A stretch of DNA of 64,000 nucleotides, from IMG/VR virus record IMGVR_UViG_3300030103_005357, positions 41,624 through 105,623 of that record; one strand, 5' to 3'. This document shows, in pieces, positions 17,170 to 47,745 of the stretch. Under the pieces are notes generated by a model. It was not told the origin of the DNA, ran no database searches, and was given only the letters and a program-made list of their open reading frames with translations. Positions within the stretch are counted from its first letter, which is position 1; every line of letters begins with the position of its first letter. The position numbers and the translations under genes were made by a program. This DNA is from a virus.

Positions 17170-17178
17170 TTTAAAAAC

Positions 17179-17796: not shown

Positions 17797-17799
17797 ATT

Positions 17800-18033: not shown

Positions 18034-18109
18034 AGATTAAAAATGGATACTGAAGCGCTCGCTTTATTAATCGCACTTATTGCAATGTTAGTATTGCTCA
18101 TTCAATGTT

Positions 18110-18835: not shown

Positions 18836-18845
18836 CATAAGATTA

Positions 18846-19028
18846 ATGAAGATAAAGAAAAAGAAATTAATTAAATACCTCAAAGAATGGGCCAAGGCCA
18901 GCGCGAGAGACGCTGAAGTTTACAGCGAGGACGGCGATTACGCACGGGCTTACGAGGCCATTATTATTGCGGATTTCATGAAGGACGATCTCATTAAGGG
19001 TATTGATTATGATTTCAATAATGAGTAA
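18846..19028 (+). CDS. Hypothetical protein
   Basis: 60-aa ORF. Confidence 0.5.
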   Translation: MKIKKKKLIKYLKEWAKASARDAEVYSEDGDYARAYEAIIIADFMKDDLIKGIDYDFNNE

Positions 19029-19031
19029 TAC

Positions 19032-19280
19032 ATGATGAATAAAAAATTAATAAAAATGGATGGCTACGATGACTGTATTGTCGGGGTAGTAGAGAGGGCT
19101 GGTCAAGAACCGATTCTCTGTTACGACAAAGAAGAAGTGCTTCACAAGCTAGAATCCCAAGGCATGAATAGAGACGAGGCAGAAGAGTTTTTTTATTTTA
19201 ATCAAATAGGAACGTGGATGGGTGACTCTACACCATGTTTTTTATCAAAAGAGCTTGACAAAGACGAGCTTCTATCTTAG
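19032..19280 (+). CDS. Conserved-looking phage hypothetical protein
   Basis: DGYDDCIVG...YD...EAEEFF.FN..G.WMG..TP pattern. Confidence 0.65.
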   Translation: MMNKKLIKMDGYDDCIVGVVERAGQEPILCYDKEEVLHKLESQGMNRDEAEEFFYFNQIGTWMGDSTPCFLSKELDKDELLS

Positions 19281-19305
19281 AGTACTGAAATCAAAGAAAG
19301 AAAAA

Positions 19306-19725
19306 ATGAAAACACAATTATTCTTAGCTGTATCACTAACGCTTTGTGCGCTTGCCACTTGGACTTCCTTTAAGACTCCTGAAGTTAAAACGGTAATTCA
19401 AGAGGAGATTATTTATCCAGAAAAAGTTGAGGCTTGCGTGTCTCTCACCAAGTTTCAACTGGAGAAAATGCTTAGTCATTTTAATGAAGACGATCACCCT
19501 TCCGAAATGAAGCGTTTTAAAAGTTTGGTTAAGAAAGATGTGAATGGTTGGAGAATCTCTTCAACTCATTTAGCTAAAGGCGCAGATGATTATCCACTTC
19601 CAGACGGTGATTTCCTAGTTGTTGATGCCTCGTTTATTGATTATCATGGGAATTTCAAAGATTGTATCACCTACGCTCACAGCTATCAAGATAATCACGA
19701 ATATATTGTGGTATCAGTCAAGTAA
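19306..19725 (+). CDS. Secreted or membrane-anchored hypothetical protein
   Basis: Signal-like MKTQLFLAVSLTLCALA; start adjusted. Confidence 0.6.
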   Translation: MKTQLFLAVSLTLCALATWTSFKTPEVKTVIQEEIIYPEKVEACVSLTKFQLEKMLSHFNEDDHPSEMKRFKSLVKKDVNGWRISSTHLAKGADDYPLPDGDFLVVDASFIDYHGNFKDCITYAHSYQDNHEYIVVSVK

Positions 19726-19730
19726 ATTTA

Positions 19731-19813
19731 GGCTCTGTGGCGGAATTGGTAGACGCTGCGGATTTAAAATCCGTTGATCCTAGATCGTGAGGGTTCGATC
19801 CCCTCCAGAGCTA
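19731..19813 (+). tRNA. tRNA-Leu(TAA)
   Basis: Cloverleaf with GCGGA-TT TAA AA-TCCGT arm, long variable arm, GGTTCGATCCC; no encoded CCA. Confidence 0.92.
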
Positions 19814-19828
19814 TTATCACTTTATTGT

Positions 19829-20050
19829 ATGGAGAATCTTAAAAGAGAGTCTGGTAAGTGGGTCGTAACCTTTGGCAAATATAAAAATTGTTGTTTAAAA
19901 AAAGTTCCCACCCATTACCTTGAATGGGTTCTTAAAAATTTTAAAGATTTATCTATTAAGGAATTGAATGTTATTAGAGGGACCGTTTCAGGTAGGAAAG
20001 GACAAATTAAAAAGCACAAAAAAAATAAGACCCGTTCGTCTAATGGTTAG
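19829..20050 (+). CDS. Small FGKYK-motif protein (DUF3820-like)
   Basis: TFGKYK...VPTHYLEW; 3' end overlaps tRNA-Glu. Confidence 0.55.
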   Translation: MENLKRESGKWVVTFGKYKNCCLKKVPTHYLEWVLKNFKDLSIKELNVIRGTVSGRKGQIKKHKKNKTRSSNG

Positions 20051-20103
20051 GACTCCAGATTTTCATTCTGGCAATAGGGGTTCGATCCCCCTACGGGTTG
20101 CCA
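20029..20103 (+). tRNA. tRNA-Glu(TTC)
   Basis: GACCCGT/ACGGGTT acceptor, CCAGA-TT TTC AT-TCTGG, T-arm, encoded CCA. Confidence 0.93.
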
Positions 20104-20125
20104 ACTTTAAAAAAACTAATAAAAA

Positions 20126-20488
20126 ATGAGACTAAGTAAAGCATTATTTACACTTGTAGCCTTAGTAATTTTAATAACACCAGCAATAGGGGAGACAAAA
20201 TATACTTCAATAATGACTGGAGTATCAGTTGGCAAAGGTAGAGTTCATATCTGGGAGGTATTGACAAAAACATTTAAGGCATCTCAAATCCGTATCAAAA
20301 AAGGAGAAGAGCGTAAGCCTGTTAGATGGGCTACAATTCCGAGCTATGTGACCGTAACGTTTACATCTAAAGATAAGACGATTACAAGAACGAAAGTAGA
20401 TAAAGCACTCAACATACTGAATTTTTCAGGTACTCCATACCTTGTATGGACGGTAAAGAAAGAAGAGCAAAAAATTAATAAAAAATAA
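20126..20488 (+). CDS. Secreted hypothetical protein
   Basis: Signal peptide MRLSKALFTLVALVILITPAIG. Confidence 0.6.
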   Translation: MRLSKALFTLVALVILITPAIGETKYTSIMTGVSVGKGRVHIWEVLTKTFKASQIRIKKGEERKPVRWATIPSYVTVTFTSKDKTITRTKVDKALNILNFSGTPYLVWTVKKEEQKINKK

Positions 20489-20489
20489 T

Positions 20490-20693
20490 ATGAATGCACA
20501 TTTAAAAGCAATTAAGAAAAAGCACGAAGCTCTTGGAGATATCGCCAGAGCAGATCTAGAAACCTATTTGAATAATCAAGTAGCTATCGGAGAACATCCT
20601 GATCTGGGCGTAGAAATCGAAAAGAAAGTAGAAACTATCGCTCATCATAATGAAGTAGTTGAAACAATTAATGATCTTATTTCAGGTCATTAA
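20490..20693 (+). CDS. Hypothetical protein
   Basis: YLNNQVAIGEHPD pattern, 67 aa. Confidence 0.6.
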   Translation: MNAHLKAIKKKHEALGDIARADLETYLNNQVAIGEHPDLGVEIEKKVETIAHHNEVVETINDLISGH

Positions 20694-20702
20694 TATATTT
20701 AA

Positions 20703-20778
20703 GCGCTTGTAGCTCAGTGGTTAGAGCAGGGGTCTCATAAACCCTTGGCCGTGAGTTCAAATCTCACCGAGCGCACCA
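20703..20778 (+). tRNA. tRNA with CAT anticodon (Ile2-lysidine or elongator Met)
   Basis: GCGCTTG/CGAGCGC acceptor, GGGGT-CT CAT AA-ACCCT, encoded CCA; paired 1-72 argues against initiator. Confidence 0.9.
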
Positions 20779-20819
20779 TTTTTAATTAGATAAATTTATA
20801 TACGAAGGTATAATCAATT

Positions 20820-21929
20820 ATGAAACCTGTTTCTCTTCACTGCTCTAAACAAATTGATGACCTTCTAGATGAATCTATGACTATGGAGGCTAACGGCAAG
20901 GTGTTCGCCTCTCAAGATCATGCAGGCCCCGCTTACGTTAGGAACCCTGACTTATGGTGTAGAGATCTAGATATTACATGTGTGTCTCCTTGGAATAGTA
21001 GTGGTGATCATAAGAAAGCGGGAACACTAGTGACCCCAAGGCATATCATAGGTGCAGCACACTACGAGTATTCTGTGGGGACAGTGGTTAGGTTTGTAGA
21101 GAAAAACGGTTCAGTGCATGAACGAACTGTAACAGGAAAAGCTCGCCATCCCGAATGTAGACGTTACTTTCCAGACTTAACAATATATACTTTAGACAGC
21201 GACCTCCCCTCTACGATAAAACCTTGTTCTGTAATGCCTAGTAATTACAGTGAATATTTAGATAACTTTAGCAGGATACCTAGCCTTGGTCTTGATCAAG
21301 AAGAGAAAGCTCTCATAATAGATTGGCGAGCTGGAGGTAGGATGCAGACACCCGCAGATCCGAAAAGGCTTATTTTTCATGAGAATAAAATCAGTGGTGA
21401 TAGCGGGAATCCTGCATTTTTAATATTCAAAGGTGAGCCTGTTCTTATAACTGTTTGGACATTTGGTGGTGCAGGGGCTGGGACTGCTGTAGCAGATCAT
21501 ATTTCAGATATTAATGGTATGATTGCTACCGCTGACACACGGGCAGGTGTATCGACAAACTATACAGTTACTGAAGCGGATTTTTCAACATACGATAACA
21601 AAGTCTTCGATGCTAAAAAACTTTTTTCTCAATTCGTTGCTGCACTTCGTAAGTTAAGACCTCGGTGGTTTAAGAAAAGTCCCGAAACCAGCGCCGAAAC
21701 CAGTGCCGAAACCAGCGCCGAAACCAGTGCCGAAACGAGTGCTGAATATAGTAGCTCTGAGCCACCTTGGGATACGAGTGCTGAATGCACTTCTAGTGCG
21801 GAATGCACTAGCGCGGAATGCACTCATCCCGAATGCACTAGCGCAGACCAAGCATCTCATTCTTTCCATGTGCAAAACTGGAATGAGACGAGTGCAGAAT
21901 ACACTAGCGCCGAGACCAGTGCCGAATAA
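20820..21929 (+). CDS. Trypsin-like serine protease with C-terminal TSAE repeats
   Basis: GTLVTPRHIIGAAH (His), PDL (Asp), GDSG (Ser). Confidence 0.7.
   Translation: MKPVSLHCSKQIDDLLDESMTMEANGKVFASQDHAGPAYVRNPDLWCRDLDITCVSPWNSSGDHKKAGTLVTPRHIIGAAHYEYSVGTVVRFVEKNGSVHERTVTGKARHPECRRYFPDLTIYTLDSDLPSTIKPCSVMPSNYSEYLDNFSRIPSLGLDQEEKALIIDWRAGGRMQTPADPKRLIFHENKISGDSGNPAFLIFKGEPVLITVWTFGGAGAGTAVADHISDINGMIATADTRAGVSTNYTVTEADFSTYDNKVFDAKKLFSQFVAALRKLRPRWFKKSPETSAETSAETSAETSAETSAEYSSSEPPWDTSAECTSSAECTSAECTHPECTSADQASHSFHVQNWNETSAEYTSAETSAE
21682..21926 (+). repeat. Coding tandem repeats (12-nt GAAACCAGYGCC; 15-nt GAATGCACTAGCGCG-like)
   Basis: Encodes (ETSA)5 and (ECTSA)n. Confidence 0.9.
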
Positions 21930-21986
21930 AGGTAATATAAAATTATTTTAAATAATAAAAATAGTAGTAATTAATCTTTTAACTAC

Positions 21987-22601
21987 ATGGAAAGTAAAAT
22001 CAACACTAATACAATTAATACATTTGCAATAATTCTATCTTGTGAAAAATATAAAGACAAAAAACTCTCCCAAGATACCACTAGGCTTGGGGATCATATG
22101 TACTTCATAGGGAATCCTCAATTATCTTCCCCTATGATTGAAGGTGATGTTGTCTATTTACCTTGCCCAGACAATTATGAGAGCTTACCTATTAAAACTT
22201 TAATGGCTGTTAAGTGGGCTTTTGAAAATAAAGATTTTGACTTATTGATAAAAACAGATGATGATGTTTACTTCTTAGATGGTTTTGATGAAATCGTTAA
22301 TGAGGCATCTGTCCATGATTATTCTGGTTTTCTGAGAAGTGGTGGTTATATGTCTAATTGGCACTTTGGTAAATGCGAGAATCAAGAATTAAATAATTTA
22401 CCTCACGCCGTTCCAGAAGTAGTATATTGTGATGGCCCATTATACTTCTTGTCTAGAAAATCTGCTGCCCATTTAGTAAATCATGGGATTAGAAGAAATT
22501 TATATATGTATGAAGATGCAGAGGTTGGAGAGTTATTAAGAAGGTCTGGAATTATTGCAAGGCAAATCCAAATTAAGTACGGGGTTTATTGGCCGAAATA
22601 A
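21987..22601 (+). CDS. Galactosyltransferase-like (GT31)
   Basis: DNYESLPIKT, KTDDD, YFLSR, YEDAEVG. Confidence 0.8.
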   Translation: MESKINTNTINTFAIILSCEKYKDKKLSQDTTRLGDHMYFIGNPQLSSPMIEGDVVYLPCPDNYESLPIKTLMAVKWAFENKDFDLLIKTDDDVYFLDGFDEIVNEASVHDYSGFLRSGGYMSNWHFGKCENQELNNLPHAVPEVVYCDGPLYFLSRKSAAHLVNHGIRRNLYMYEDAEVGELLRRSGIIARQIQIKYGVYWPK

Positions 22602-23271
22602 TCTTGAATCACATAACGTGATACCTCAAAAATTACATCAAGTTTGGTTAGGTCATAATCACATACCTGAAGAATTTGTAAAGTTTACAAGTAACTGGAG
22701 GAAGCTGCATCCTGACTGGCAATATAAATTATGGACAGAGGAGACCATATCAAACAAACCACAAATTAAAAACTTGGTTGATAAGTGCGAGGCGTTTTCA
22801 TCTAAATCAAATGTAGTTAGATTATATGCGGTTTACTTGGAGGGTGGAGTTTATGCAGACATGGACATTGATTGGTTCCGCAACTTTGATGAACTATTAA
22901 ATGTTAATTCCTTTGCATCGCCCGAAACAAATAAGACTAATAAAGAATTAGGACTTAAAGATTTTCACATAAATTACTCTAAACTATTTTGCAATGCAAT
23001 TTTCGGTGCGGTTACTAAAAGTGAGTGGGTAAATTGGCAAATAAAACAATTATCTGAGATGGTATCTGAGAAGCCGCCTTGGGGTCCAACCTTAATGACC
23101 AATGCTGTTGAGGCATTTAAAAATACGAATGATTTTCAAGAATACCCATCAACGTATTTTTATCCATATTTTTGGAATGAAGAATATACAAAGTCTGAAG
23201 ATTTTAAAAATAAAAATAAAGAGTCATATGTAGTCCATCATTGGGAAAGTTCGTGGGATCAAAAAAAATAA
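22555..23271 (+). CDS. DXD glycosyltransferase (GT32 / OCH1-like)
   Basis: IPQKLHQVW, HPDWQYKLW, EGGVYADMD, GP, HHWESSW. Confidence 0.85.
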   Translation: MQGKSKLSTGFIGRNNLESHNVIPQKLHQVWLGHNHIPEEFVKFTSNWRKLHPDWQYKLWTEETISNKPQIKNLVDKCEAFSSKSNVVRLYAVYLEGGVYADMDIDWFRNFDELLNVNSFASPETNKTNKELGLKDFHINYSKLFCNAIFGAVTKSEWVNWQIKQLSEMVSEKPPWGPTLMTNAVEAFKNTNDFQEYPSTYFYPYFWNEEYTKSEDFKNKNKESYVVHHWESSWDQKK

Positions 23272-23276
23272 CAATC

Positions 23277-23837
23277 ATGATTTTTAAAGCGCGAAATAAA
23301 ATAGTACAATATTGTCCAACCCCAAAATGCGGTTGTACATCAACTAAAGTGATGATCCGCAAAGGGATAGAAGGTATTATTGATTATCAAAATAATATTC
23401 ACGCTAGATTTAGCACAAAGACATTTAAAGCGGTAGATGCGGATATTAAATTTTGTATAGTCAGAGATCCTGTGAGTAGGTTTTTGTCATGCTATACAAA
23501 CAGAATTTGCCGACATCACGATATTGAATTTGTAGAACTCGATGAGTTTATTAACAATTTTCATGATAAATACTATAGATTAGATAAAAATATGCATCAT
23601 CATTTTCGACCACAGGTTGATTTTATAGGCCATTGCCCTAGCTACTATAATAAAGTCTTTTATTTGCATGAAATGTCTTTAGTGTCGCAATTCTTAAGTG
23701 AAATCATGGGGAAGTCAATAAAATTAGAAAAACTAAATCCCGTTCAGGCAGAAAAACCAATCCCAACTGAAAGCCAAATTGATTTCATAAAGTCGTTTTA
23801 CGAAGATGATTATAAATTTTTGGACAAGATAAAGTAA
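23277..23837 (+). CDS. Sulfotransferase family protein
   Basis: PKCGCTS, VRDPVSRFLSCY, HFRPQ, YEDDY; start adjusted. Confidence 0.85.
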   Translation: MIFKARNKIVQYCPTPKCGCTSTKVMIRKGIEGIIDYQNNIHARFSTKTFKAVDADIKFCIVRDPVSRFLSCYTNRICRHHDIEFVELDEFINNFHDKYYRLDKNMHHHFRPQVDFIGHCPSYYNKVFYLHEMSLVSQFLSEIMGKSIKLEKLNPVQAEKPIPTESQIDFIKSFYEDDYKFLDKIK

Positions 23838-25099: not shown

Positions 25100-25774
25100 A
25101 TGGCCCTCAAGGACGATTACCTCATAAAGAAGATAACATACCAAGATGCGATGGAAATCGTCGTGAATAAGCATTATATGGGTAGAAAAGGCCCATGTAG
25201 TCATGCTTTTGGTTTATTTGAGAGGGGTACATCACATGAGCAACTAGATCTTTTTGATAATAACAAAGATAAGCTTGTAGGAGTCATTACATATGGGGTT
25301 AGTGCTAGCTCTACTCTTTTAAGAGGTGTTTGCGGTGAAGAAGAAGCTAAAAATGTTTATGAACTTACCCGTTTGTGGATTGAAGATAGCACACCAAAGA
25401 ATGCAGAAAGCTTTTTTATTGGTAATACTATCAAGACATTAGACAGAGAGGTCATTGTTTCTTTCTCTGAGATAGCTCAAGGGCATGTTGGAACAGTTTA
25501 TCAGGCATCAAATTTCTTTTATTGTGGTCTTAGTGCTAAGTTTAGAGATCCCAAAGTAAAAGGGCTAGAGAATAAACATCATACAAGCTATGCTCACGGG
25601 ATGAATATGGCTCAAGTCAGAGAAAAATATGGTGCGGAGAACGTCTATTATGTTGACAGACCTCGCAAACATCGTTACGTTTTCTTTAACGCTAAGAAGA
25701 AAAGACGTAAAGAACTACTTGGTAAACTAAATTACAAAATAGAGCCTTACCCAAAAAGCCCAGATCGAGCGTGA
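25100..25774 (+). CDS. Mom-like GNAT DNA-modification acetyltransferase
   Basis: KHY, YELTRLW, PKNAESFFIG, GHVGTVYQASNF..G, KHRY. Confidence 0.75.
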   Translation: MALKDDYLIKKITYQDAMEIVVNKHYMGRKGPCSHAFGLFERGTSHEQLDLFDNNKDKLVGVITYGVSASSTLLRGVCGEEEAKNVYELTRLWIEDSTPKNAESFFIGNTIKTLDREVIVSFSEIAQGHVGTVYQASNFFYCGLSAKFRDPKVKGLENKHHTSYAHGMNMAQVREKYGAENVYYVDRPRKHRYVFFNAKKKRRKELLGKLNYKIEPYPKSPDRA

Positions 25775-28157: not shown

Positions 28158-28682
28158 TAGTCGGGGCTGTGATATATAATATTGTTCATTTGTAATTACA
28201 AAATTCTTTTGTTTGTTACATATTGTAGTGTCGGACACTAAAACCACAACATATAGTATAGTTTTAGGTCCATATACCTACTGCACCAATCCCCTCCCAT
28301 CGTCGCCTATCCCCCATACCTACAACATAAACTACACAACATACTAAGTAAAGATATAAGGGAGAATAATAGAGGAAAGACTGGAGGAATGGGTGTTCAA
28401 ATACTGGATGTGGATTACCCTTTTTAATTAAATAAAAATAATATAAATTCCACACACAATAGTTTTCCTTGATTCTAAAGGATTTGCGGCCCTTTTGTTT
28501 GACGTAGCTGCCGCAGTGAGGTTGGTCTTTTTACTTCGCTTCAGTAAACCCAAACAAAAAAAATTATAAAAAAAGTCAATTTCTGCACGGGGGTAAATAC
28601 AAAAAGTTTTTAAAAGTTTTACCTCACTGCACCAGCCACGTTAAAAAACAATAAAAAAAGTGCAGGTCGGGTGACATTTCGC

Positions 28683-28845: not shown

Positions 28846-28915
28846 ACCCCAAATAAGTGTGTGGTTAGCGGGGGCGACCACGTTCGACGATATCCGATTG
28901 TATCCGATTATCTCT

Positions 28916-28992
28916 GTAAGTCATTGAGTAGTAGGGAGTTACGGCGATCCGCGCCAGCGTCCTCCGTAACTCGCTGACAACCAACGAGTTAC
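28916..28992. repeat. Paired-palindrome element R1 (27+23+27 bp)
   Basis: GTAAGTCATTGA-GTA-GTAGGGAGTTAC / GC spacer / GTAACTCGCTGA-CAA-CCAACGAGTTAC. Confidence 0.9.
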
Positions 28993-29006
28993 GAGGATTT
29001 TATTTT

Positions 29007-30165: not shown

Positions 30166-30229
30166 GTCTGAGGGAAACATACCATGAAGCGGAAGGGCCG
30201 TCAAATTTAAATTAATTAAAAATTCAGAC

Positions 30230-30306
30230 GTAAGCCACTGATTAGCAAGGAGTTACGGCGAACGCCCCCGCCGCCGCCCGTAACCCGTTGATAGTCAACG
30301 AGTTAC
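30230..30306. repeat. Paired-palindrome element R2
   Basis: 27-bp palindromes at 30230 and 30280, spacer GGCGAACGCCCCCGCCGCCGCCC. Confidence 0.95.
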
Positions 30307-30315
30307 GAGGGTTTT

Positions 30316-30498
30316 TTATTTGGCAGATTTCATTTCTTCTTTTCGCTTTTTCCTATCGCCAAACCAACCAACATCTGGCGCTTGCATATTTCTGCGTCGC
30401 CAAAAATCGTGATAGGCTTTATTGAATTCTTCTCTAAAACCCCTTTTTAAAGTGGCGTATCTGTTTGCTTCTGAGAAGTCTGGTTTTATTGGTTCCAT
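30316..30498 (-). CDS. Hypothetical protein
   Basis: 60-aa ORF ending just before R2. Confidence 0.5.
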   Translation of the reverse strand: MEPIKPDFSEANRYATLKRGFREEFNKAYHDFWRRRNMQAPDVGWFGDRKKRKEEMKSAK

Positions 30499-31667: not shown

Positions 31668-31778
31668 AACGAAAGTATTTTGACAGGATGTTTCCTGAGA
31701 GACAAGAGTTTTTTTGATTTTTTATTATTTTAATTTGCGCTTGCACTCTTAGTTTTTTGTGATATGGAAACAATCCTT

Positions 31779-31855
31779 GTAACTCACTGATTGATAAGGA
31801 GTTACGGGGCGCGGCGGGGCGGTTCGCCGTAACTCGCTGGTAGTCAACGAGTTAC
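31779..31855. repeat. Paired-palindrome element R3 (spacer inverted)
   Basis: Palindromes at 31779 and 31829, spacer GGGGCGCGGCGGGGCGGTTCGCC. Confidence 0.95.
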
Positions 31856-31862
31856 GGAGTTT

Positions 31863-32072
31863 TTACTTAATGATTTTTTTACGATAGTTCTCTTCTATGC
31901 ATTCCGATGTGAAAGAATCGAGCCATCCGTTTGCCGTGTCTATGTCGCGATTAAGAGCGTAAACAGGAGTCCCATCCTCATGGCTGATGTGAATTTCCAA
32001 ATGCCCATCGCAATCACCTGCGACGGTGTGGCGTTGACCATTTAAGTGTACGGTCCATTTTTTAATCTTCAT
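31863..32072 (-). CDS. Hypothetical protein
   Basis: Start adjusted to MKIKKW. Confidence 0.5.
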   Translation of the reverse strand: MKIKKWTVHLNGQRHTVAGDCDGHLEIHISHEDGTPVYALNRDIDTANGWLDSFTSECIEENYRKKIIK

Positions 32073-33327: not shown

Positions 33328-33400
33328 AACGAGGGTATTTTGACAGAATTTGATTTTAAGACAAGCCTTTTTTAATGTTTTTAATTAAAAAAAAATCTTC

Positions 33401-33477
33401 ATAAGTCACTGAACGATAGTGAGTTACGGCGAACGGACCCGCCGCCGCCCGTAACTCCTTGATACTCAATGACTTAC
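33401..33477. repeat. Paired-palindrome element R4
   Basis: Palindromes at 33401 and 33451, spacer GGCGAACGGACCCGCCGCCGCCC. Confidence 0.95.
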
Positions 33478-33555
33478 AGCGTTTTTTATTTCTGCAAGAG
33501 AAAACCCCGCCCCCCATGCAGAGGGGACGGGGTTAGCTATCGACCACGATGAAAA

Positions 33556-34459: not shown

Positions 34460-34597
34460 AACGGCAGGAGTATGACCTAAAAAAACACTTTGCACAACAA
34501 CTAATTGAACAAAAATGAAAATAATTTGTAGGTCAGAATATTTTGCGGAAATAAATATTGACATACCCCCCAGCCTTATGATAGAGAGAAAACCTCC

Positions 34598-34674
34598 GTA
34601 ACTCACTACTACTCAACGAGTTACGGGCCACCGAGGGGCGCTTCGCCGTAACTTACTGATTGTCAATGAGTTAC
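34598..34674. repeat. Paired-palindrome element R5 (spacer inverted)
   Basis: Palindromes at 34598 and 34648, spacer GGGCCACCGAGGGGCGCTTCGCC. Confidence 0.95.
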
Positions 34675-34763
34675 GATGGTTTTACAGTAACTCCTAAAAA
34701 AACAAAAAAAACCCCTCCCACTGTCTAGAAAAGCGGGAGAGGTTTGGATAGTCAACCTTTCGA

Positions 34764-36028: not shown

Positions 36029-36218
36029 AACGTTTTTAGTTTCTTGTTCTTTGGTTGATGCCCCCGAATCAGTAGTTCATCAGCGACAGAGAGAGTCTAA
36101 CTGGATTTAGTTTATATGCAAGATTTTTTATTAATTTAAAATGCAGCTCAGAGTATTTCGCGCCAAATATCTCTTGAGACAATCCACCACCCCAAAAACA
36201 TAGTTACAAAAAAACCCC

Positions 36219-36295
36219 GTAAGTCACTGATAATCAACGACTTACGGGCGGCGGCGGGGCGCTTCCCCGTAACTCGCTGATTACCAACAAGTTAC
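36219..36295. repeat. Paired-palindrome element R6 (spacer inverted)
   Basis: Palindromes at 36219 and 36269, spacer GGGCGGCGGCGGGGCGCTTCCCC. Confidence 0.95.
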
Positions 36296-36305
36296 GAGGC
36301 TTTTC

Positions 36306-36560
36306 CTACTTAGTAGGATCGTCGCAAGCAGGGCCGACATCCCCATCGCGCCCCTCAGAGTGAAAAAAGTCTCCGTCACACTCGCACAACCACCAGCGCG
36401 AGCGCCTGACCTTCCCCCGCTTACCAGCCCAGTCGGGGCCACAAGCATCCTCCCAAGCTTCCTCGGGGGAGGTTCCGAAACCTTGATTCAACAGCTGAAG
36501 CCCAAAAGGGCAGGACTGCTTTTTAGAACGGACAACATAGTGTTTAGTAGTGCTGGACAT
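36306..36560 (-). CDS. Hypothetical protein
   Basis: Own promoter TTGCTA-17-TATTCT-6-ATG. Confidence 0.6.
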   Translation of the reverse strand: MSSTTKHYVVRSKKQSCPFGLQLLNQGFGTSPEEAWEDACGPDWAGKRGKVRRSRWWLCECDGDFFHSEGRDGDVGPACDDPTK

Positions 36561-36854: not shown

Positions 36855-36991
36855 GGCGGGAGTATGGTTCAGAATTTATGATGGGTCAACCTATAAAAAC
36901 ATTTTTTTTGATTTTAATGTAGCTCAGGATATTTTTCGCCAAATATCTTATGGGGCAATCCACCCCAGAAACGCAGTCAGAAGAGAGCTTC

Positions 36992-37068
36992 GTAACTCAC
37001 TGATACTCAACGAGTTACGGCGAACCGCCCCGCCCCCGCCCGTAACTCCTTGACGCTCAACGAGTTAC
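36992..37068. repeat. Paired-palindrome element R7
   Basis: Palindromes at 36992 and 37042, spacer GGCGAACCGCCCCGCCCCCGCCC; supplies lysozyme stop codon. Confidence 0.95.
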
Positions 37069-37655
37069 AGCGTTTTATCTAACCACAAAGAAACTTCCCA
37101 TTTTCTCCGACGCTCCAAACCTTTTCGGATTTTTCCCGCTGCCATTCTATATTGAGGCATAACCACCTCAACGCTTTTATAGTTTCCATTATTGAGTCTA
37201 TTCTTTTTTTCGCAGACGAGTTTGCGAAGTGAACCTTGACCACAGTTGAAAGTAAAACTTGTGAGTGATGCCAATTGGTTTTCAGTCAATGGAACTTTTA
37301 CAATTCTCAACACATGATTTTTTGCGACAAGTAATTCTTCTTCTAACAGTTTTAATGCTTCGGCTTCTGTGATGGTGTCTCCCCACTTAACATTTTTGGT
37401 ATGCCCATAGCCGATAGTCATGACTCCACCACTGCAACGATATGCCTCAGACTTAAAACTCTCATATTGTTTTACCCTATCAAACATTTTATCCCAAGGG
37501 GAAACCTCTTTTTTATAAACTCGATTCGGCTTAACAAGCAAAGGGACATTCTCTTGCTTTTCGGCGATCATCGGGAGGATCTCTATTGGCTCCTCAGTAT
37601 TTAAGAGGAGATAAACTGATGTGGCTAGTAGTGTGATCATAAAAAGTTTTTTCAT
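37065..37655 (-). CDS. GH24 phage lysozyme with N-terminal signal/anchor
   Basis: YES...AYRCSGGVMTIGYGHT, LTENQ.ASL.SFTFNCG, GLERRRKWE. Confidence 0.88.
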   Translation of the reverse strand: MKKLFMITLLATSVYLLLNTEEPIEILPMIAEKQENVPLLVKPNRVYKKEVSPWDKMFDRVKQYESFKSEAYRCSGGVMTIGYGHTKNVKWGDTITEAEALKLLEEELLVAKNHVLRIVKVPLTENQLASLTSFTFNCGQGSLRKLVCEKKNRLNNGNYKSVEVVMPQYRMAAGKIRKGLERRRKWEVSLWLDKTL

Positions 37656-37823: not shown

Positions 37824-37967
37824 TTATTTTAATTCCTCCAATTCAACTTTTAACTCTTGGCACTCTTTCTGGAATTGACCTGAGACTTCGACGACCCTAT
37901 CGACCATCTTGTCCCAATTTTCTTCTGCTTTTGCCATCGCTGCCAATGCTTCTTCTGTCGCTGTCAT
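37824..37967 (-). CDS. Small helical protein, paralogue A (47 aa)
   Basis: MTATEEALAAMAKAEENWDKMVDRVVEV...; promoter TTGACC-16-TATACT-6-ATG; paralogue at 40485..40652. Confidence 0.75.
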   Translation of the reverse strand: MTATEEALAAMAKAEENWDKMVDRVVEVSGQFQKECQELKVELEELK

Positions 37968-38039
37968 GTGGGAAGTATATCAGAAAATGTGATGAGGTCA
38001 ACCCCTAAACGCACTTTTTTAATTTATTTTTAGGGAAAT

Positions 38040-38234: not shown

Positions 38235-38447
38235 TTATTTTTCTATGCGTGAGAAGTAGAGAGTTCTGAAAACTTCCTTGTTACCGCTCTCGCTGTCGTG
38301 GCTTTTGTCAACTACCTTGCAAACTGCGAACTCCTTAGTTGAACGCTCAACCCCGCGAAGTTGATACATGCGGAGATTTCCATTGTTGGAGGTGGTATAA
38401 ACAAACTGCTTATTGATCAGGCGGGTGATGTTGTCTTGGTTGGTCAT
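38235..38447 (-). CDS. Hypothetical protein
   Basis: TAAAAT-6-ATG; C-terminal FRTLY resembles FRTLH in 39079..39432. Confidence 0.6.
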   Translation of the reverse strand: MTNQDNITRLINKQFVYTTSNNGNLRMYQLRGVERSTKEFAVCKVVDKSHDSESGNKEVFRTLYFSRIEK

Positions 38448-38564
38448 GTGGATATTTTACTCTAAAAACGCAGAGATTAAAAGCTTTTTCTGCATCTTTT
38501 TTTATTTATTTTTTTAAGTAAAAGGCTTGACACTATTCTTCTTTACTATAAAGAAACATCCTTC

Positions 38565-38641
38565 GTAAGTCCTTGATACTCAACGAGTTACGGGCCAGCG
38601 ACCCGCCGCGCCCCGTAACTCCTTGATACTCAGTGAGTTAC
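38565..38641. repeat. Paired-palindrome element R8
   Basis: Palindromes at 38565 and 38615, spacer GGGCCAGCGACCCGCCGCGCCCC. Confidence 0.95.
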
Positions 38642-38738
38642 GACGGTTTTCTTATTAGCTGTTTTCTCGCGGCTGTCAACACAAAAGATTAATTTAATTC
38701 AAAAAAAAGCTCCCTTTCGGGAGCCTTGCACGGGGTGG

Positions 38739-38972
38739 TTAGTCTTGCCAGTCTCGCGCTCGATCCTCCGCGCCTTGCGCCATGTATGTCCGAGCGTCCT
38801 CCAATCCGTCCTTGTAGGCGAACGCCCATATCTCATATGATTCCTCTCCATTCGGAAACTCATCGGGTATGATATAGCCAAGGTAGGAGGTGGGGCAGAT
38901 GTTACTCTCCTGATTGTTGAGTGCTGCCTTGTATGCGAATTCTGCGAGCTGGTCTTGTGTTACTGTTGCCAT
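38739..38972 (-). CDS. Hypothetical protein
   Basis: Start moved to ATG after TTGTGT-17-TATAAT-6; hairpin and A-run terminator at about 38701-38724. Confidence 0.6.
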   Translation of the reverse strand: MATVTQDQLAEFAYKAALNNQESNICPTSYLGYIIPDEFPNGEESYEIWAFAYKDGLEDARTYMAQGAEDRARDWQD

Positions 38973-39078
38973 GCCGAGATTATACTCTCGAAAAGAATTA
39001 AACACAAGATCTTTTTGCATAAAAACACAAAAAAACCCGCCAGCCTCCGAAGAGACTGACGGGCGACACACAACACCA

Positions 39079-39432
39079 TTAGAAAACTGATTTGGCTAGC
39101 TGGTAAGCGGTCGCCACGCGACCCTTCACCTTGGTAATTCCCGAAACATGCAGAGTGCGGAACTTAGTCTTGCCTCCATCGTCGAGGTCTTGCACCTCTC
39201 CTTGGATGTAACGGCGACCCGAACCTTTGGCGTGATCGGTGTGATCAACTGACTTGATAACGAAACTACGAACGCCGTCATTTTTGACAGAGGATTCGTC
39301 GTGGTTGTAGTAAGTCACCACGCGATTGGTGAGCTTTTTCTTAAGGTCTTCGTCGCTGAGTCCATACAGGGCGTGGTCGAACTTGTAGTTGATGCCGACA
39401 TTGGTGGTGGTAGTGGTAGTGGTGTTTTTCAT
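39079..39432 (-). CDS. Hypothetical protein
   Basis: Start moved to ATG after TTGCGC-17-TATAAT-9; terminator at about 39030-39063. Confidence 0.65.
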   Translation of the reverse strand: MKNTTTTTTTNVGINYKFDHALYGLSDEDLKKKLTNRVVTYYNHDESSVKNDGVRSFVIKSVDHTDHAKGSGRRYIQGEVQDLDDGGKTKFRTLHVSGITKVKGRVATAYQLAKSVF

Positions 39433-39499
39433 AACGAGGTAATTATACTCTAGATTTTGGTTGGGCGCAAGAACTATTTTGCTATTAAAGTGATTTTTT

Positions 39500-39745
39500 T
39501 TAGAGGTAGGAGGCGACAGAAACAAGGGCTTCGACCTCTGCTCTTTTGGCTGCGCGTTTAGCTGCGCGGATATCGAGGAGAGCTTTCGCTGCTTGCTCGC
39601 GGGTGATAGCTTGGAACTTGTAGCGACTCCAGTTCTGATTTTTAACGGAGACATGCAAGTAGGTCATGCCAGTACGGTAGACTGAGAGAATGAGATGCTT
39701 GGTCTTATAGGTGCGGAACTTTGGTGATGTAGTGGTGTCGGACAT
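39500..39745 (-). CDS. Hypothetical protein
   Basis: Start moved to ATG after TATAAT-6. Confidence 0.6.
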   Translation of the reverse strand: MSDTTTSPKFRTYKTKHLILSVYRTGMTYLHVSVKNQNWSRYKFQAITREQAAKALLDIRAAKRAAKRAEVEALVSVASYL

Positions 39746-39862
39746 GGGGATATTATAAACGGAAATCTCACAAAAGAAAAGCTTTTTCTGCATAAAAAAG
39801 AAACTTTTTTTTCGATTAAAAGTGTTGACACGATGGCTTGTTTTGGTATGGGAAAAACCTTC

Positions 39863-39939
39863 GTAAGTCGTTGATACTCAGTGAGTTACGGGCGGCGGCG
39901 GGGCGCTTCGCCGTAACTCGTTGATACTCAGTGAGTTAC
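39863..39939. repeat. Paired-palindrome element R9 (spacer inverted)
   Basis: GTAAGTCGTTGA-TAC-TCAGTGAGTTAC / GGGCGGCGGCGGGGCGCTTCGCC / GTAACTCGTTGA-TAC-TCAGTGAGTTAC. Confidence 0.95.
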
Positions 39940-39987
39940 AGCGATTCTTTTCATAACATAAAAACTCAACGTGTCAAGTATTTTTTT

Positions 39988-40053
39988 TGGTGGATGGCGG
40001 GGGGATCGAACCCCCATCCGAGACTCGCATCCCGTCGAAACCATTGGCCACCC
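39988..40053 (-). ncRNA. Mini-tmRNA: tRNA-like domain only, no mRNA-like domain
   Basis: GGGTGGC-CAATGGTTTCGAC-GGGAT-GCGA-GTCTC-GGAT-GGGGG-TTCGATC-CCCCC-GCCATCC-A-CCA; G3:U70, A73. Confidence 0.8.
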
Positions 40054-40060
40054 AAACTTT

Positions 40061-40285
40061 TTACTTGCCGTAAATCGAGCGGAGTTCCCAACTCGCTTCG
40101 TTCACTATTTCCGCAGTCACGCTTTGCGGATTCTTGCACGCTTCGGGAAGACCTTTGCGAATGATTCGCTTCAACTTACGCGCACGCATCCACTCCCCAA
40201 TGTGATGAGGGAAGAGAATGGGGTAGGTAAGAATCAAGATAGCTTTCCCCATTGGGGATTGATATTTAAAATTGTGGAGGTTCAT
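40061..40285 (-). CDS. Hypothetical protein
   Basis: Start adjusted to MNLHNFKY; immediately upstream of mini-tmRNA. Confidence 0.5.
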   Translation of the reverse strand: MNLHNFKYQSPMGKAILILTYPILFPHHIGEWMRARKLKRIIRKGLPEACKNPQSVTAEIVNEASWELRSIYGK

Positions 40286-40292
40286 AATGTTT

Positions 40293-40475
40293 TTATTGAA
40301 TGAGATCGAGAGACTCAAGAGAAACTTCTTTCGCGTGTCCGTCATTGAATGAGATCCAAGCGCTGTTGTCTTGTTGGAATGTCTCATGAACCAAGACGGT
40401 TTGGCCTTGGTAATTAGCGAAGAACTCTTCGCAAGAAACCTCGGCTAATTGACTGATTGTGTTTTGGTCTGTCAT
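40293..40475 (-). CDS. Hypothetical protein
   Basis: Promoter TTGACC-17-TAGAAT-6-ATG. Confidence 0.6.
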   Translation of the reverse strand: MTDQNTISQLAEVSCEEFFANYQGQTVLVHETFQQDNSAWISFNDGHAKEVSLESLDLIQ

Positions 40476-40484
40476 GTGTGTATT

Positions 40485-40652
40485 CTACTTGTTTTCTTTT
40501 TTAAGGTCAAGGAACCATTCCTCTTGTTCTTTCTGGAACTCTTGGCATTCCCTGATGAACTGCTCTCCGACTTCGACGGTTCTGTCCACCATCTTGTTCC
40601 AATTTTCTTCGGCTTTGGCCATTGCTGCTAGTGCTTCTTCGGTTGCTGTCAT
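40485..40652 (-). CDS. Small helical protein, paralogue B (55 aa)
   Basis: MTATEEALAAMAKAEENWNKMVDRTVEV...; promoter TTGTAT-17-TAGAAT-6-ATG. Confidence 0.75.
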   Translation of the reverse strand: MTATEEALAAMAKAEENWNKMVDRTVEVGEQFIRECQEFQKEQEEWFLDLKKENK

Positions 40653-40716
40653 GTGTGAATTCTACTTTATTTTTCTAAGTGATACAAGCTCTTTTCGTAT
40701 AAAAAGAAAACTTTTT

Positions 40717-41007
40717 TTAACGCTCCGTTAAAGGTCTCCAATCGAAACGACCGCAAGCGATCTCAAGACCGCGCCCCCATTTAGAGGCGTAAGCCTCCGC
40801 ACGGTTAGCAAACTTCTCGACACGCTTGGGCTTTCCCTCGGGGAAGGCGAAACGGTTGTTGAGAATGCGCTCAGTCTTTTTGAGGTTGCTACTTCCACCC
40901 CAAGCAAACTCTTCACCGTTCCACTCACGGATTGCCGTGGAAGATTTGGAGATGATGACATAGAACGGGATTTCGCTTTCTTTTTTGATGGTGTTGTTTG
41001 TTTCCAT
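40717..41007 (-). CDS. Hypothetical protein, first gene of the early region
   Basis: TGCTAAAAT-6-ATG. Confidence 0.6.
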   Translation of the reverse strand: METNNTIKKESEIPFYVIISKSSTAIREWNGEEFAWGGSSNLKKTERILNNRFAFPEGKPKRVEKFANRAEAYASKWGRGLEIACGRFDWRPLTER

Positions 41008-41306
41008 GCGTGTATTTTAGCACAGATCCGCATGAATTAAAAGCTTTTTTTACCTCAATAGTGCTTTTTTTTTGACCTGTAATACAACCCCCCGATTAAT
41101 ATAAAAAACACTTGACACGATACCGCGCAAAGTCGCGGGGGGAGTCTTTTCTCAAAAACTAAACAATTAAATTATCATAGTTAGGCGTTGGATGGAAAAA
41201 AATAGCGGGGTTATTTTGGGGGAAAGTGCATGCCCAAGAAAGACCAGAATAAAAAAATAAATTAATATGCCGCGAATATAATATACAAAAACGTGTAGTA
41301 TAAGGT

Positions 41307-42924: not shown

Positions 42925-43248
42925 ATGAGTCACATATTTTGTTATAGTTGTGGGGTTAAGATTGAATATAATTTTGCTAAACCTAATTTTTGTTCTAAAT
43001 GTGGGGCAAGTTTTGGAGGGACGCAGCAATCTCAAGCTGCGGTGGAACAGGTTTCCAATCAAACCAAATCCTCTGTAGTTTCAGATGACGAAACCGACGC
43101 AGAGTTCGTCCCACAACTGCGGGGATTGCAGGTAGAAATTGAAAAGCCTAAAACTGTCACCATTGGTTCTTTAGCGGGTCAAAACACACCACCTGACTAT
43201 AAAGGAAAGGGATCGTATGACCTGAATGATTTCACTTCTAAACCTTAA
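42925..43248 (+). CDS. Zinc-ribbon protein
   Basis: FCYSCG...FCSKCG. Confidence 0.75.
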   Translation: MSHIFCYSCGVKIEYNFAKPNFCSKCGASFGGTQQSQAAVEQVSNQTKSSVVSDDETDAEFVPQLRGLQVEIEKPKTVTIGSLAGQNTPPDYKGKGSYDLNDFTSKP

Positions 43249-43925
43249 TGCCCGAAGAGAAGAAGTATGAAGACTACCAAGACATCATAGATCGAGCAGT
43301 TAAGAAGCAGAGGTCAAGGTGGCGTTTAGATGCTATCAAGTGGTTTGACTTCGAAGATGTTGAGCAGGTGGTAAAATCACACATCGCCCAAAAGTGGCAC
43401 ATGTGGGATCAGTCGCGTCCATTGGAGCCGTGGCTTAGTCGTGTAATCACCAATAGGATGTGGAATCTTATAAGAAACCATTATGGATCTTATATCAAAC
43501 CTTGTTCAACATGCATACATGCACGGGATGAATTGTGCGCTAAGACCGTAAGTGGTAACCAAGATATTTCGTGCAAAGATTATGCTAAATGGTCAAAGAA
43601 GAAAAAATTTGGACTAGAATTGAAAACTGCATCTAGTCTAGATGATACTGAGCATGTTATAAACGTTAAGTGTAATTCGTATTTTGATTATGATGCTGAT
43701 ACGCAGAAGCTTAACGAGAAAATGCTAAAAAAACTTGGAGAGAAACAATACGGGGCATATCATATGTTATATTTCGAGGATTGTACAGAAGAAGATGTAG
43801 CAAAGTATATGGGGTATAAACTGTCTGATACTAATCGTAAGATTGGCTACAGACAAGTAAAGAATCTCAAATGTAAATTTCATAAGATTGCAGTAAAAAT
43901 TTTAAAAGATGGAGGAGATTTGTAA
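43248..43925 (+). CDS. Phage sigma-factor-like protein
   Basis: Region 2-like FEDVEQ...WDQSRPLEPWLSRVITNRMWNLIR; region 4-like HTH TEEDVAKYMG; four-Cys insert. Confidence 0.7.
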   Translation: MPEEKKYEDYQDIIDRAVKKQRSRWRLDAIKWFDFEDVEQVVKSHIAQKWHMWDQSRPLEPWLSRVITNRMWNLIRNHYGSYIKPCSTCIHARDELCAKTVSGNQDISCKDYAKWSKKKKFGLELKTASSLDDTEHVINVKCNSYFDYDADTQKLNEKMLKKLGEKQYGAYHMLYFEDCTEEDVAKYMGYKLSDTNRKIGYRQVKNLKCKFHKIAVKILKDGGDL

Positions 43926-45980: not shown

Positions 45981-47745
45981 GCTTCTACTTTATAAGTTTT
46001 TAAGAGATAATCCATCTTTTGCTTGTGAGTTATTCACAGGTGTAAAGCTATTTCCGTTTCAGCATATGGCTATTAAGTCTATGATGGAGACGGATTACTT
46101 TTTGGGAATATGGAGTCGTGGTATGAGTAAATCATTCTCCACTGCTGTGTTTGCAATTCTAGACGCTATCATGAATCAAGGCGTGCAGATAGGAATCATA
46201 TCTAAATCATTCCGTCAGTCCAAGATGATCTTTAAGAAGATTGAGGATATCGCTAGAAGCCCGAAAGCTGAGTTTTTATCTCAATGCATAACTAGGACAT
46301 CAAAAATGAATGATGAATGGGTTATGGAGATAGGTTCTAGTAGTATCAGAGCCTTGCCTCTAGGCGATGGCGAAAAGCTTCGTGGTTTCCGCTTCCAACG
46401 TATGATTATCGACGAGCTTCTTCTTATGCCTGAGAAGATCTTCAATGAGGTCATTATGCCATTCCTTTCTGTTGTTGAGAACCCTACCGAACGTCAAGAG
46501 ATCTATGATCTAGAAACTCAAATGATTGCGGAGGGTGAAATGACCGAAGAGCAAAGAAAACGATGGCCAAATAACAAAATCATTGGTTTATCCTCTGCAT
46601 CGTATAAATTTGAATATTTATTTAAGCTTTATCAACAATATGAATCTCTAATCATCAATGAGAATAAACAAGATGGCGCTCATAGGGTAATCATGCATTT
46701 TAGTTATGATTGTGCGCCTCCACAGCTGTATGATCAAAATTTGATTAACCAATCTAAATCGACAATGAGTCAGTCTCAGTTTGACCGAGAATTTGGAGCT
46801 GTATTCACAGATGATAGTTCTGGATATTTCAAAGTAAGTAAAATGGCTTCATGTACTCTACCTGATGGTGAAGGGCAATGTGTAGAGGTAATTGGTGATC
46901 CCGCCTCTAAATATATCCTCGCATTTGACCCTTCTTGGTCCGAGAGTGAAAGCTCAGACGATTTCGCTATACTTTTGATAAAGATCCACCCAGAGACAAG
47001 AAAAGGCGTTGTAGTGCATAGCTACGCTGTTTCTGGCTCAAACCTACAAACACACATTAGATACATGGCTTATGTGTTGACCCACTTCAATATTGAAATG
47101 GTGGTTGGCGATTACAATGGTGGTGTTCAATTTTTAAGCGCGTGTAAGGAAAGTGGTATATTTAAAAAATTAAATTTAAAAATAGATACTGTAGAAGCTG
47201 ATTTAGATAACCCTAAAGATTATGCCAAAGGTATTAGGAAGCTTAAGACCCAAATAGACAAATCATCAAGAAAATTTGTGTTTTTAAGAAAGCCTAGCTC
47301 TACATGGATTCGTTTCGCTAACGAAAGTTTACAATCAGCATTCGACCATAAAAGATTATACTTTGCTGGGTCTGCTATGGATGACAACTACAATATGCAG
47401 CGCAAAGCTAATATCCCTATTGAAAATTTGAAGTTCTTGAGGAATCAAGATTCGGAAGAGAAAAACAAAGGAGCTAAGATGATTGACTTTGTTGAGCATC
47501 AAAGAGATATGATGGATCTTATAAAAGTGCAGTGCGCTTTAGTACAAGTTACCACTTCGCCACAAGGAACACAAAGTTTTGATCTACCCCCTAACCTTCG
47601 TAAGCAGAGAGGCGCTGACAAAGCTCGAAAAGACTCCTACTCAGCTTTAGTTCTAGGTAACTGGGGTATGAATGTATATTTTGACATGTTGGATAATCAA
47701 GACTCCGATATTACAGAAACATTTACCCCAATGTTTATTTCTTAA
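45880..47745 (+). CDS. terL: Terminase large subunit
   Basis: LFPFQ, SRGMSKS, LRGFR..IIDE, FDREF, LAFDPS, KDSYSA. Confidence 0.88.
   Translation: MAWIEGNQDLYKKFKEVNQEILSKEGYIEEGEAKLLLYKFLRDNPSFACELFTGVKLFPFQHMAIKSMMETDYFLGIWSRGMSKSFSTAVFAILDAIMNQGVQIGIISKSFRQSKMIFKKIEDIARSPKAEFLSQCITRTSKMNDEWVMEIGSSSIRALPLGDGEKLRGFRFQRMIIDELLLMPEKIFNEVIMPFLSVVENPTERQEIYDLETQMIAEGEMTEEQRKRWPNNKIIGLSSASYKFEYLFKLYQQYESLIINENKQDGAHRVIMHFSYDCAPPQLYDQNLINQSKSTMSQSQFDREFGAVFTDDSSGYFKVSKMASCTLPDGEGQCVEVIGDPASKYILAFDPSWSESESSDDFAILLIKIHPETRKGVVVHSYAVSGSNLQTHIRYMAYVLTHFNIEMVVGDYNGGVQFLSACKESGIFKKLNLKIDTVEADLDNPKDYAKGIRKLKTQIDKSSRKFVFLRKPSSTWIRFANESLQSAFDHKRLYFAGSAMDDNYNMQRKANIPIENLKFLRNQDSEEKNKGAKMIDFVEHQRDMMDLIKVQCALVQVTTSPQGTQSFDLPPNLRKQRGADKARKDSYSALVLGNWGMNVYFDMLDNQDSDITETFTPMFIS

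Follow-up and report, generated by a model that had tools for sequence, protein, structure and literature searches.

Trans-translation is the main ribosome-rescue pathway of bacteria and an antibiotic target. The locus presented here raises the question whether a phage can carry a tmRNA gene that is reduced to its tRNA-like domain (TLD) and, if so, what such an RNA would do in the infected cell. The gene lies in a stretch of 64,000 nt of the IMG/VR virus record IMGVR_UViG_3300030103_005357 (positions 41,624-105,623), which is called the window throughout. A preliminary description had read in the letters an acceptor stem with G3:U70, a discriminator A and CCA, a stemless D-loop, a helix closed by a GCGA loop and a T-arm. 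Every one of these features is indeed present in the letters, and their arrangement is given below, with RNA positions counted from the 5′ end.

39988-40053, minus strand: the mini-tmRNA gene, 66 nt, TLD only (match to Rfam RF00023; own covariance model, R1)
40047-40053, minus strand: 5′ strand of the acceptor stem, GGGUGGC, positions 1-7, with G3 at 40051; pairs with 39992-39998
40035-40046, minus strand: stemless D region CAAUGGUUUCGA, 12 nt, positions 8-19; aligned to the Rfam tmRNA consensus GGaUUCGAC
40019-40034, minus strand: helix-2 stub of 6 bp, C20-U25 with G30-G35 (sequence reading and minimum-energy fold)
40025-40028, minus strand: GNRA tetraloop GCGA capping the helix-2 stub (sequence reading)
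40016-40018, minus strand: linker GAU, positions 36-38 (Rfam alignment)
39999-40015, minus strand: T arm GGGGG-UUCGAUC-CCCCC, positions 39-55 (reading, Rfam alignment and fold)
39988-39998, minus strand: 3′ strand of the acceptor stem, GCCAUCC, with U70 at 39994, followed by discriminator A and CCA (sequence reading)
39991, minus strand: discriminator A, A73 (sequence reading)
39988-39990, minus strand: encoded CCA (sequence reading)

Three traits of a tmRNA TLD are found together in these 66 nt. The 7-bp acceptor GGGUGGC/GCCAUCC has G3:U70, A73 and CCA, the T arm carries a loop of the GGUUCGA type, and the stemless D region contains GGnUUCGAC, with GAC and GGA placed around helix 2 in the consensus alignment. 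In detail, the D region has the tmRNA-type motif GGUUUCGAC at its end and closes with GGUUUCGA, C20 being the next nucleotide. The acceptor, the helix-2 stub and the T stem are exactly the three helices of the minimum-energy fold. In folding energy itself, the element has no advantage over shuffled sequence (z -0.6); the support for it thus comes from homology and covariation and not from stability.

In the cmscan search against Rfam, the tmRNA family RF00023 matched the element end to end (model positions 1-374, at 39988-40053) with 47.6 bits and an E-value of 1e-15, which is above the gathering score of 47 by a margin of only 0.6 bits. A search with tmRNA covariance models had been proposed in the preliminary description, and its outcome is thus positive. 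The alignment shows 312 internal positions of RF00023, comprising the pseudoknots and the tag message, reduced to the 4 nt of the GCGA loop, and the earlier claim of a tmRNA architecture in which a tetraloop takes the place of the pseudoknots and the mRNA domain stands. No resume codon, tag reading frame or stop codon is found within the 66-nt element in the RF00023 alignment. The pseudoknots and the long helix 2 are absent, helix 2 being present as the 6-bp stub only. The element is therefore a TLD only, and not a complete tmRNA able to perform trans-translation. Our own covariance model R1, which was built from seven short-form sequences of the window's subfamily, scores the element with 92.9 bits, and this is the sole R1 match within the window.

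ARAGORN, which had also been proposed as a check, behaved differently: it made no tmRNA or tRNA call at 39988-40053. In the whole window the program reported only three ordinary tRNAs (Leu, Glu and Met), located at 19.7-20.8 kb on the opposite strand. The RNA shares G3:U70, A73, the T arm and CCA with tRNA-Ala but, unlike the latter, has neither a D stem nor an anticodon arm. Its identity as a tRNA (RF00005) was rejected because there is no anticodon arm and no ARAGORN call, and because Rfam ranks tmRNA above tRNA within the clan.

The collapse of a full-length ssrA during assembly, which according to the preliminary description would undo the reading, is excluded by two findings. A DNA contig of 946 nt from a different study spans 39410-40355 with zero differences, and the 66-nt form is present in 10 of 10 IMG/VR contigs from other metagenomes, which are related to the window at about 70-90% nucleotide identity. 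Since it occurs in all of these relatives, the 66-nt form is a stable state of the lineage rather than a fresh deletion. Among the 11 aligned sequences the mean pairwise identity is 95% in the RNA, 67% in the upstream ORF and 45% in the downstream spacer.

The few changes in the hairpin of the relatives mostly respect the fold. For instance, G21:C34 is replaced by A21:U34, which is a compensatory change, whereas G22:U33 becomes A22:U33 and U25:G30 becomes C25:G30 with the pairing kept; the tetraloop GCGA is found as GCAA and so retains the GNRA type. The only exception is U33 changed to G in three contigs, which results in a G-G mismatch. In one relative (L032) the upstream gene has been replaced by an unrelated one and the RNA has been retained. 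In addition, a DNA contig of run X8, in which 39447 is fused to 39981, represents a strain variant without the 533 nt of 39448-39980, just downstream of the A run of the RNA. Judging by this deletion variant and by the gene swap in L032, the RNA gene seems to be bordered by mosaic junctions on either side.

The distribution of the element beyond these relatives was examined with two patterns in IMG/VR. The first pattern consisted of TTCGAC, a gap of 8-38 nt, the T-loop core and CCACCA only, and it matched at least 119 loci. Among the matches listed, 71 sequences (70 IMG/VR loci and the window), of which at least 56 are distinct, share the architecture; they were selected for an acceptor starting with GGG and at least six of the seven positions paired, and all but one have seven of seven. 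R1 gave about 70 matches of 40-95 bits among the loci listed, and tRNAs scored 33 bits at most. In the R1 alignment of 52 distinct sequences, which is fitted to the structure, 97.9% of the cells are paired versus 68% in shuffles, and changes on both sides occur in 13 of the 18 pairs. Covariation among homologues, another check named at the outset, is pronounced: the score is 0.699 versus 0.134 in shuffled alignments (none of the 500 shuffles reached it), with slid controls not exceeding 0.113. A model-free count based on register agrees, with 93-100% canonical pairs in the T stem and the helix.

In the family, helix 2 is 98.3% paired with changes on both sides in five of six pairs, and the T stem is 100% paired with such changes in four of five. 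In the acceptor, pairs 4-7 covary freely and G1:C72, G2:C71 and G3:U70 are invariant. G3:U70 is the determinant of alanyl-tRNA synthetase (AlaRS). The second pattern, in which neither acceptor strand nor the 3′ tail was constrained, yielded at least 85 distinct sequences, a perfect 7-bp acceptor being present in 81 of 85 among the matches listed. All 81 of these perfect-acceptor sequences among the matches listed have G1:C72, G2:C71, G3:U70 and A73, and only 22 of the 81 encode CCA. TTCGAC, the T loop and the CCACCA of the first set were imposed by the search patterns and do not count as conserved. To judge from these counts, alanine identity is under selection in the family.

Chance is excluded by the roughly 70 strong model matches, by the covariation, and by the conservation of the RNA (95%) against that of its flanks (67% and 45%). 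The Rfam cut-off is also exceeded in all four other carrier phages tested and in one relative of the window phage. The 66-nt gene is real, selected and correctly read as a TLD-only tmRNA, and the mini-tmRNA type is common in phage metagenomes, where it is unannotated and invisible to ARAGORN.

Two size classes compose the family, the short forms of 62-69 nt, to which the window RNA belongs, and the long forms of about 76-84 nt. The long forms (L007, L012, L065, L086, L104, L109 and others) frequently have an inner hairpin motif (U/G)AAAACC...GG(U), as in the RNA of Mycobacterium phage DS6A, and this motif may be a conserved second recognition element. A complete phage of 123.6 kb (G002, the contig behind locus L018) contains both a full-length tmRNA at 77588-77979 (94 bits) and an 82-nt mini-tmRNA at 46486-46567 (65 bits), which suggests that the two forms are not redundant there and have different roles. 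Many weaker tRNA-like matches are also found in G002, in an array at 63-80 kb.

The conservation described above bears on the view that the element is a relic, either an attP-type fragment of ssrA or a decaying pseudogene of tRNA-Ala or tmRNA. Fragments of ssrA are indeed known from phages which use this gene as their integration site (PMC9004378). However, both ends of the gene are present here and fold together, the 5′ half being paired, and the compensatory changes together with the 95% conservation indicate selection. A recent deletion is at odds with the 66-nt form in 10 of 10 related contigs. No tyrosine integrase (PF00589) was found in five carrier phages or among the window ORFs of at least 150 aa. 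An attP fragment of an ssrA-integrating phage, for which the 3′ part only and an integrase would be expected, was accordingly rejected as a candidate. Relic and pseudogene readings are left with almost no probability, contradicted as they are by the pairing of the 5′ half, by the covariation and by the lack of integrases in the phages scanned.

The RNA has a precedent among cultured phages. The entry "Mycobacterium phage DS6A (TLD only)" appears in the list of Hudson, Lau and Williams (2014; PMC4131195), and in the tmRNA database paper of 2025 DS6A is again the sole phage named, along with a pair of plastid genes, each about 65 bp long (PMC11915505). We located the DS6A gene at 28478-28560 of JN698994, with 43.2 bits in Rfam, and R1 detects it with 41.2 bits and an E-value of 9e-7, so the window RNA is a new short-form relative of the DS6A-type gene. 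Both are phage-borne and consist of the TLD only: the 7-bp acceptor has G3:U70 and A73, the D region is stemless and terminates in CGAC, a single hairpin stands where a complete tmRNA has its message and pseudoknots, and a linker and a T arm complete the RNA. On the other hand, DS6A has the long form of 83 nt with a hairpin of about 30 nt, whose inner AAAACC...GGU is shared with many IMG/VR members, it has no encoded CCA, and its host is an actinobacterium. The window RNA, on the contrary, is a short form of 66 nt with a 6-bp stub and a GNRA loop, it encodes CCA, and it comes from an uncultured marine phage. The TLD-only phage tmRNA as such is already published from the single example of DS6A, and the window locus is a new short-form case. 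Our literature search retrieved no description of a broad phage family of TLD-only tmRNAs.

The boundaries of the RNA are those of a known experimental molecule. The TLD co-crystallised with SmpB (2CZJ, Thermus thermophilus) consists of the 5′ 25 nt, UUCG and the 3′ 34 nt (PMC3985003), and the phage RNA of 25 nt, GCGA, 34 nt and CCA. Binding to SmpB and entry into the A site of the ribosome are documented for engineered TLD fragments (PMC8363625), and a truncated tmRNA has been crystallised on the ribosome with SmpB and EF-Tu, according to a citation in PMC8363625. SmpB binds the elbow of the TLD, with Trp122 in a pocket of A15, U17 and A334, and the change G19C abolishes binding (PMC8363625). 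In the Rfam alignment, U16, G18 and A37 of the phage RNA are the equivalents of the SmpB-contact nucleotides U17, G19 and A334 of Escherichia coli (contacts from PMC8363625). Engineered TLDs are laboratory cuts from full-length tmRNA, whereas the window RNA is a natural gene under selection in a phage lineage.

Message-less tmRNAs are also found in the mitochondria of jakobids and oomycetes and, as the two plastid genes of about 65 bp, in Mallomonadaceae (PMC11915505). Similarly to the window RNA, they have no tag reading frame, are of similar size and retain the TLD. They were, however, reduced in place and are accompanied by a dedicated nucleus-encoded SmpB, whereas the window RNA is that of a virus, and the search for an accompanying SmpB gene was negative: neither the five carrier phages, of which three are 92% complete or more, nor the window ORFs of at least 150 aa include one. 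Full-length tmRNAs of phages are found in Bxz1-type mycobacteriophages, in Bacillus phage G and in the two-piece forms of the Melnitz type (PMC4131195, PMC9004378). These are phage-encoded homologues of ssrA with the same TLD, but they retain the tag message and are capable of complete trans-translation, whereas the window RNA is without it.

The blastn search with the 66 nt alone matched 11 cultured phages, in the 3′ half only. Four of them were checked and none has a mini-tmRNA: SM1 has a permuted two-piece tmRNA, Tunturi_5 a tRNA, and the other two have no RNA-family match. The tmRNA of Pseudomonas phage SM1 (KU245542.1, 53801-54433) is unannotated and matches RF04321 with 118.6 bits and beta_tmRNA with 111 bits. 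The same short blastn match as in SM1 is found in PaMx31, FBPa45 and UF_RH6.

The window is phage DNA, as its ORFs encode a large terminase, tail proteins, a lysozyme, an amidase, PhoH, ThyX, and Mom-like and sigma-like proteins. The blastn searches of the element region and the terminase region against 50,697 cultured-phage records gave no match. With tblastn against cultured phages, the terminase has relatives at 30% identity at most and the 373-aa ORF has none. At least part of the stretch is contained in 20 runs of 12 studies, and almost all of these are metagenomes of marine or aquatic origin. The three tRNA genes lie within a cluster (16399-23837) of genes for glycan modification, which includes a Core-2/I-branching enzyme, two sulfotransferases, a galactosyltransferase and a DXD glycosyltransferase.

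The RNA sits within a block of small ORFs on the minus strand, at about 28-41 kb. The features of its surroundings and of the wider window are the following.

40061-40387, minus strand: upstream small ORF of at most 108 aa, without family match; 67% conserved in the relatives
39841-39950, minus strand: copy of a ninefold 110-nt intergenic repeat, 38 nt downstream of the RNA
28894-29003, 30208-30317, 31757-31866, 33379-33488, 34576-34685, 36197-36306, 36970-37079, 38543-38652 and 39841-39950: the nine copies of the repeat of about 110 nt, spaced 0.8-1.6 kb
38439-38495, 38964-39020, 39737-39793 and 40999-41055, minus strand: four copies of a 57-nt promoter-like unit
43248-43925: sigma-70 region-2-like protein
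25100-25774: Mom-family protein
17179-17796: ThyX

Co-transcription with the upstream ORF is likely, because 7 nt separate the stop codon of this ORF from the 5′ end of the RNA. In each 110-nt repeat, two GUAACUC-loop-GAGUUAC hairpins enclose a palindrome rich in GC, and a U run comes next. The repeat is kept in the related phages too and has no Rfam match at the gathering score; it may serve as a compound terminator or as an RNA motif with a regulatory function, and the copy downstream of the RNA is a possible terminator or unit boundary. In the one copy of the 57-nt unit that was read out (39737-39793), TATAAT lies about 6 nt before an ATG, a distance that suggests transcripts with little or no leader and, perhaps, a promoter specific to the phage. 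From the ORF stop 7 nt before it, the 110-nt repeat 38 nt after it and the promoter-like repeat that follows, the RNA is probably the last gene of a transcription unit. Consensus scans returned no promoter or terminator adjoining the RNA, and TTGACA-16-TATGAA at 39977-39950 was rejected as a promoter in the same scan. A direct repeat of 148 nt with 76% identity (37832-37979 and 40517-40664) is also found in the small-ORF block, where it probably represents duplicated small genes.

Among the contigs listed, those from two RNA libraries, belonging to relatives at 90-95%, cover 39440-39889 and 40066-40361 and thus flank the RNA; these are contigs only, in which DNA carry-over is possible. A third RNA library has contigs over distant parts of the window only.

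This position could be taken to mean that the RNA acts in cis, as a tRNA-like RNase P site which separates or stabilises mRNAs at the end of the unit, the excised RNA having no role of its own. The placing 7 nt past an ORF stop and 38 nt before a repeated intergenic element fits such a processing signal. However, the RNA stands beside only one of the nine intergenic repeat units, and the family is found in quite different contexts in other phages. RNase P, moreover, needs neither G3:U70 nor a D loop of the tmRNA type. We give this explanation very little credence.

What, then, would the RNA do? We consider, with slightly better than even confidence and on the basis of its sequence, that it would be an alanine-charged, TLD-only tmRNA, an SmpB-dependent competitor of the host tmRNA which adds no degradation tag. 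The RNA would be transcribed at the end of the leftward small-ORF unit, cut by RNase P at G1 and trimmed at its 3′ end back to the encoded CCA. The host alanyl-tRNA synthetase would charge it through G3:U70 and A73. Host SmpB would then bind the D-loop and the elbow, and EF-Tu the charged acceptor and the T arm. The complex would compete with the host tmRNA both for SmpB and for stalled ribosomes with an empty A site, and nascent chains would receive one alanine at most and no degradation tag, for want of a resume codon and a tag message; SsrA tagging is therefore proposed to be suppressed in infection. The phage would supply the RNA alone and the host the SmpB. No AlaRS was found among the scanned window ORFs of at least 150 aa. 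A search of 185,579 species-representative bacterial genomes for a host whose tmRNA 3′ end has this acceptor gave no match with CCA. Five acceptor matches without CCA in these genomes were discarded as chance matches, because ARAGORN finds no tRNA or tmRNA there.

Several observations would be in accordance with such a charged competitor. The equivalents of the SmpB-contact nucleotides are kept in the sequence. The boundaries are the same as in the TLD crystallised with SmpB, and a truncated tmRNA can enter the ribosome. Furthermore, a molecule similar to the TLD-only RNA of DS6A is a strong inhibitor of tmRNA in E. coli and may act through titration of SmpB, according to PMC4131195 (citing Mao 2009) and PMC11915505; by analogy, the window RNA may act likewise.

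The same inhibition is, however, independent of chargeability according to PMC4131195, which favours titration of SmpB over entry into the ribosome and counts against a charged competitor. It would suit a pure SmpB sponge, by which host SmpB is sequestered and the host tmRNA destabilised with need of neither charging nor the ribosome, and the kept contact nucleotides would suit it as well. SmpB does not read G3:U70, A73 or CCA, and a sponge could therefore do without them. On the contrary, G3:U70 and A73 are present in 81 of 81 unconstrained sequences among the matches listed while the neighbouring pairs covary, and the lineage of the window retains an encoded CCA. It is argued from the invariant alanine identity beside freely covarying pairs that charging matters; as charging apparently matters, an action at the ribosome is favoured over the plain sponge, which we regard as unlikely.

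The conserved charging elements are equally expected of a productive rescue without a tag. Alanyl-TLD with SmpB would take over the nascent chain, and the ribosome would be freed by drop-off and peptidyl-tRNA hydrolase or by factors of the ArfB type; the gain for the phage would be an extra rescue capacity, with truncated or read-through phage proteins spared from degradation. Message-less tmRNAs do persist with SmpB in some mitochondria and plastids (PMC11915505), and for the mini form a positive role of its own is suggested by its presence beside a full-length tmRNA in G002. A termination route without a resume or stop codon is, however, not known, the release mechanism is hypothetical, and the present evidence fits competitive inhibition equally. 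Tag-less rescue is thus held to be improbable as the actual function.

The preliminary description had offered precisely a decoy against trans-translation or a tag-less rescue factor, and both roles had already been suggested in print for the TLD-only RNA of DS6A (PMC4131195, PMC11915505). The invariant alanine identity elements, as far as sequence conservation can tell, would be compatible with either of them.

A decoy or trigger outside trans-translation may also be envisaged by analogy, its partners being defence proteins with SmpB-like (SPB) domains (CoCoNuT), RNase R, or nucleases attacking tRNA and tmRNA. CoCoNuT types II and III-A have SmpB-like OB folds predicted to bind tmRNA (PMC11090510), and tRNA and tmRNA fragments join an anti-CRISPR complex and bind RNase R (PMC11662646). 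This is an argument from analogy alone: no such system is linked to the window phage or its host, and the conserved alanine identity would be left unexplained. Its probability is accordingly judged to be very low.

Returning to the charged competitor, two further considerations weigh against it. The benefit of a tagging block to a lytic phage is not obvious, since some phages need trans-translation, and the presence of both forms in G002 is hard to square with a pure inhibitor.

For the window locus itself, the outcome is mainly a correct annotation. In the literature that was searched, one phage TLD-only tmRNA is published, that of DS6A, mentioned in passing. The window adds a minimal natural version of 66 nt, with the boundaries of the construct crystallised with SmpB. 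In uncultured phages such genes are numerous, structurally conserved, selected for alanine identity and absent from annotations. Their strict alanine identity, and the fact that at least one phage has a full-length tmRNA as well, would point to RNAs that are charged and used. It is conceivable, though doubtful, that mini-tmRNAs are a widespread and hitherto overlooked class of phage counter-measure at the ribosome, serving as tag-less acceptors that protect nascent phage chains against SsrA-directed proteolysis or as decoys for defence proteins of the host which have SmpB-like domains (CoCoNuT). If the role proposed here is true, many phages would tune or block the protein tagging of their hosts with one tiny RNA, and this RNA would be a ready-made natural scaffold for inhibitors.
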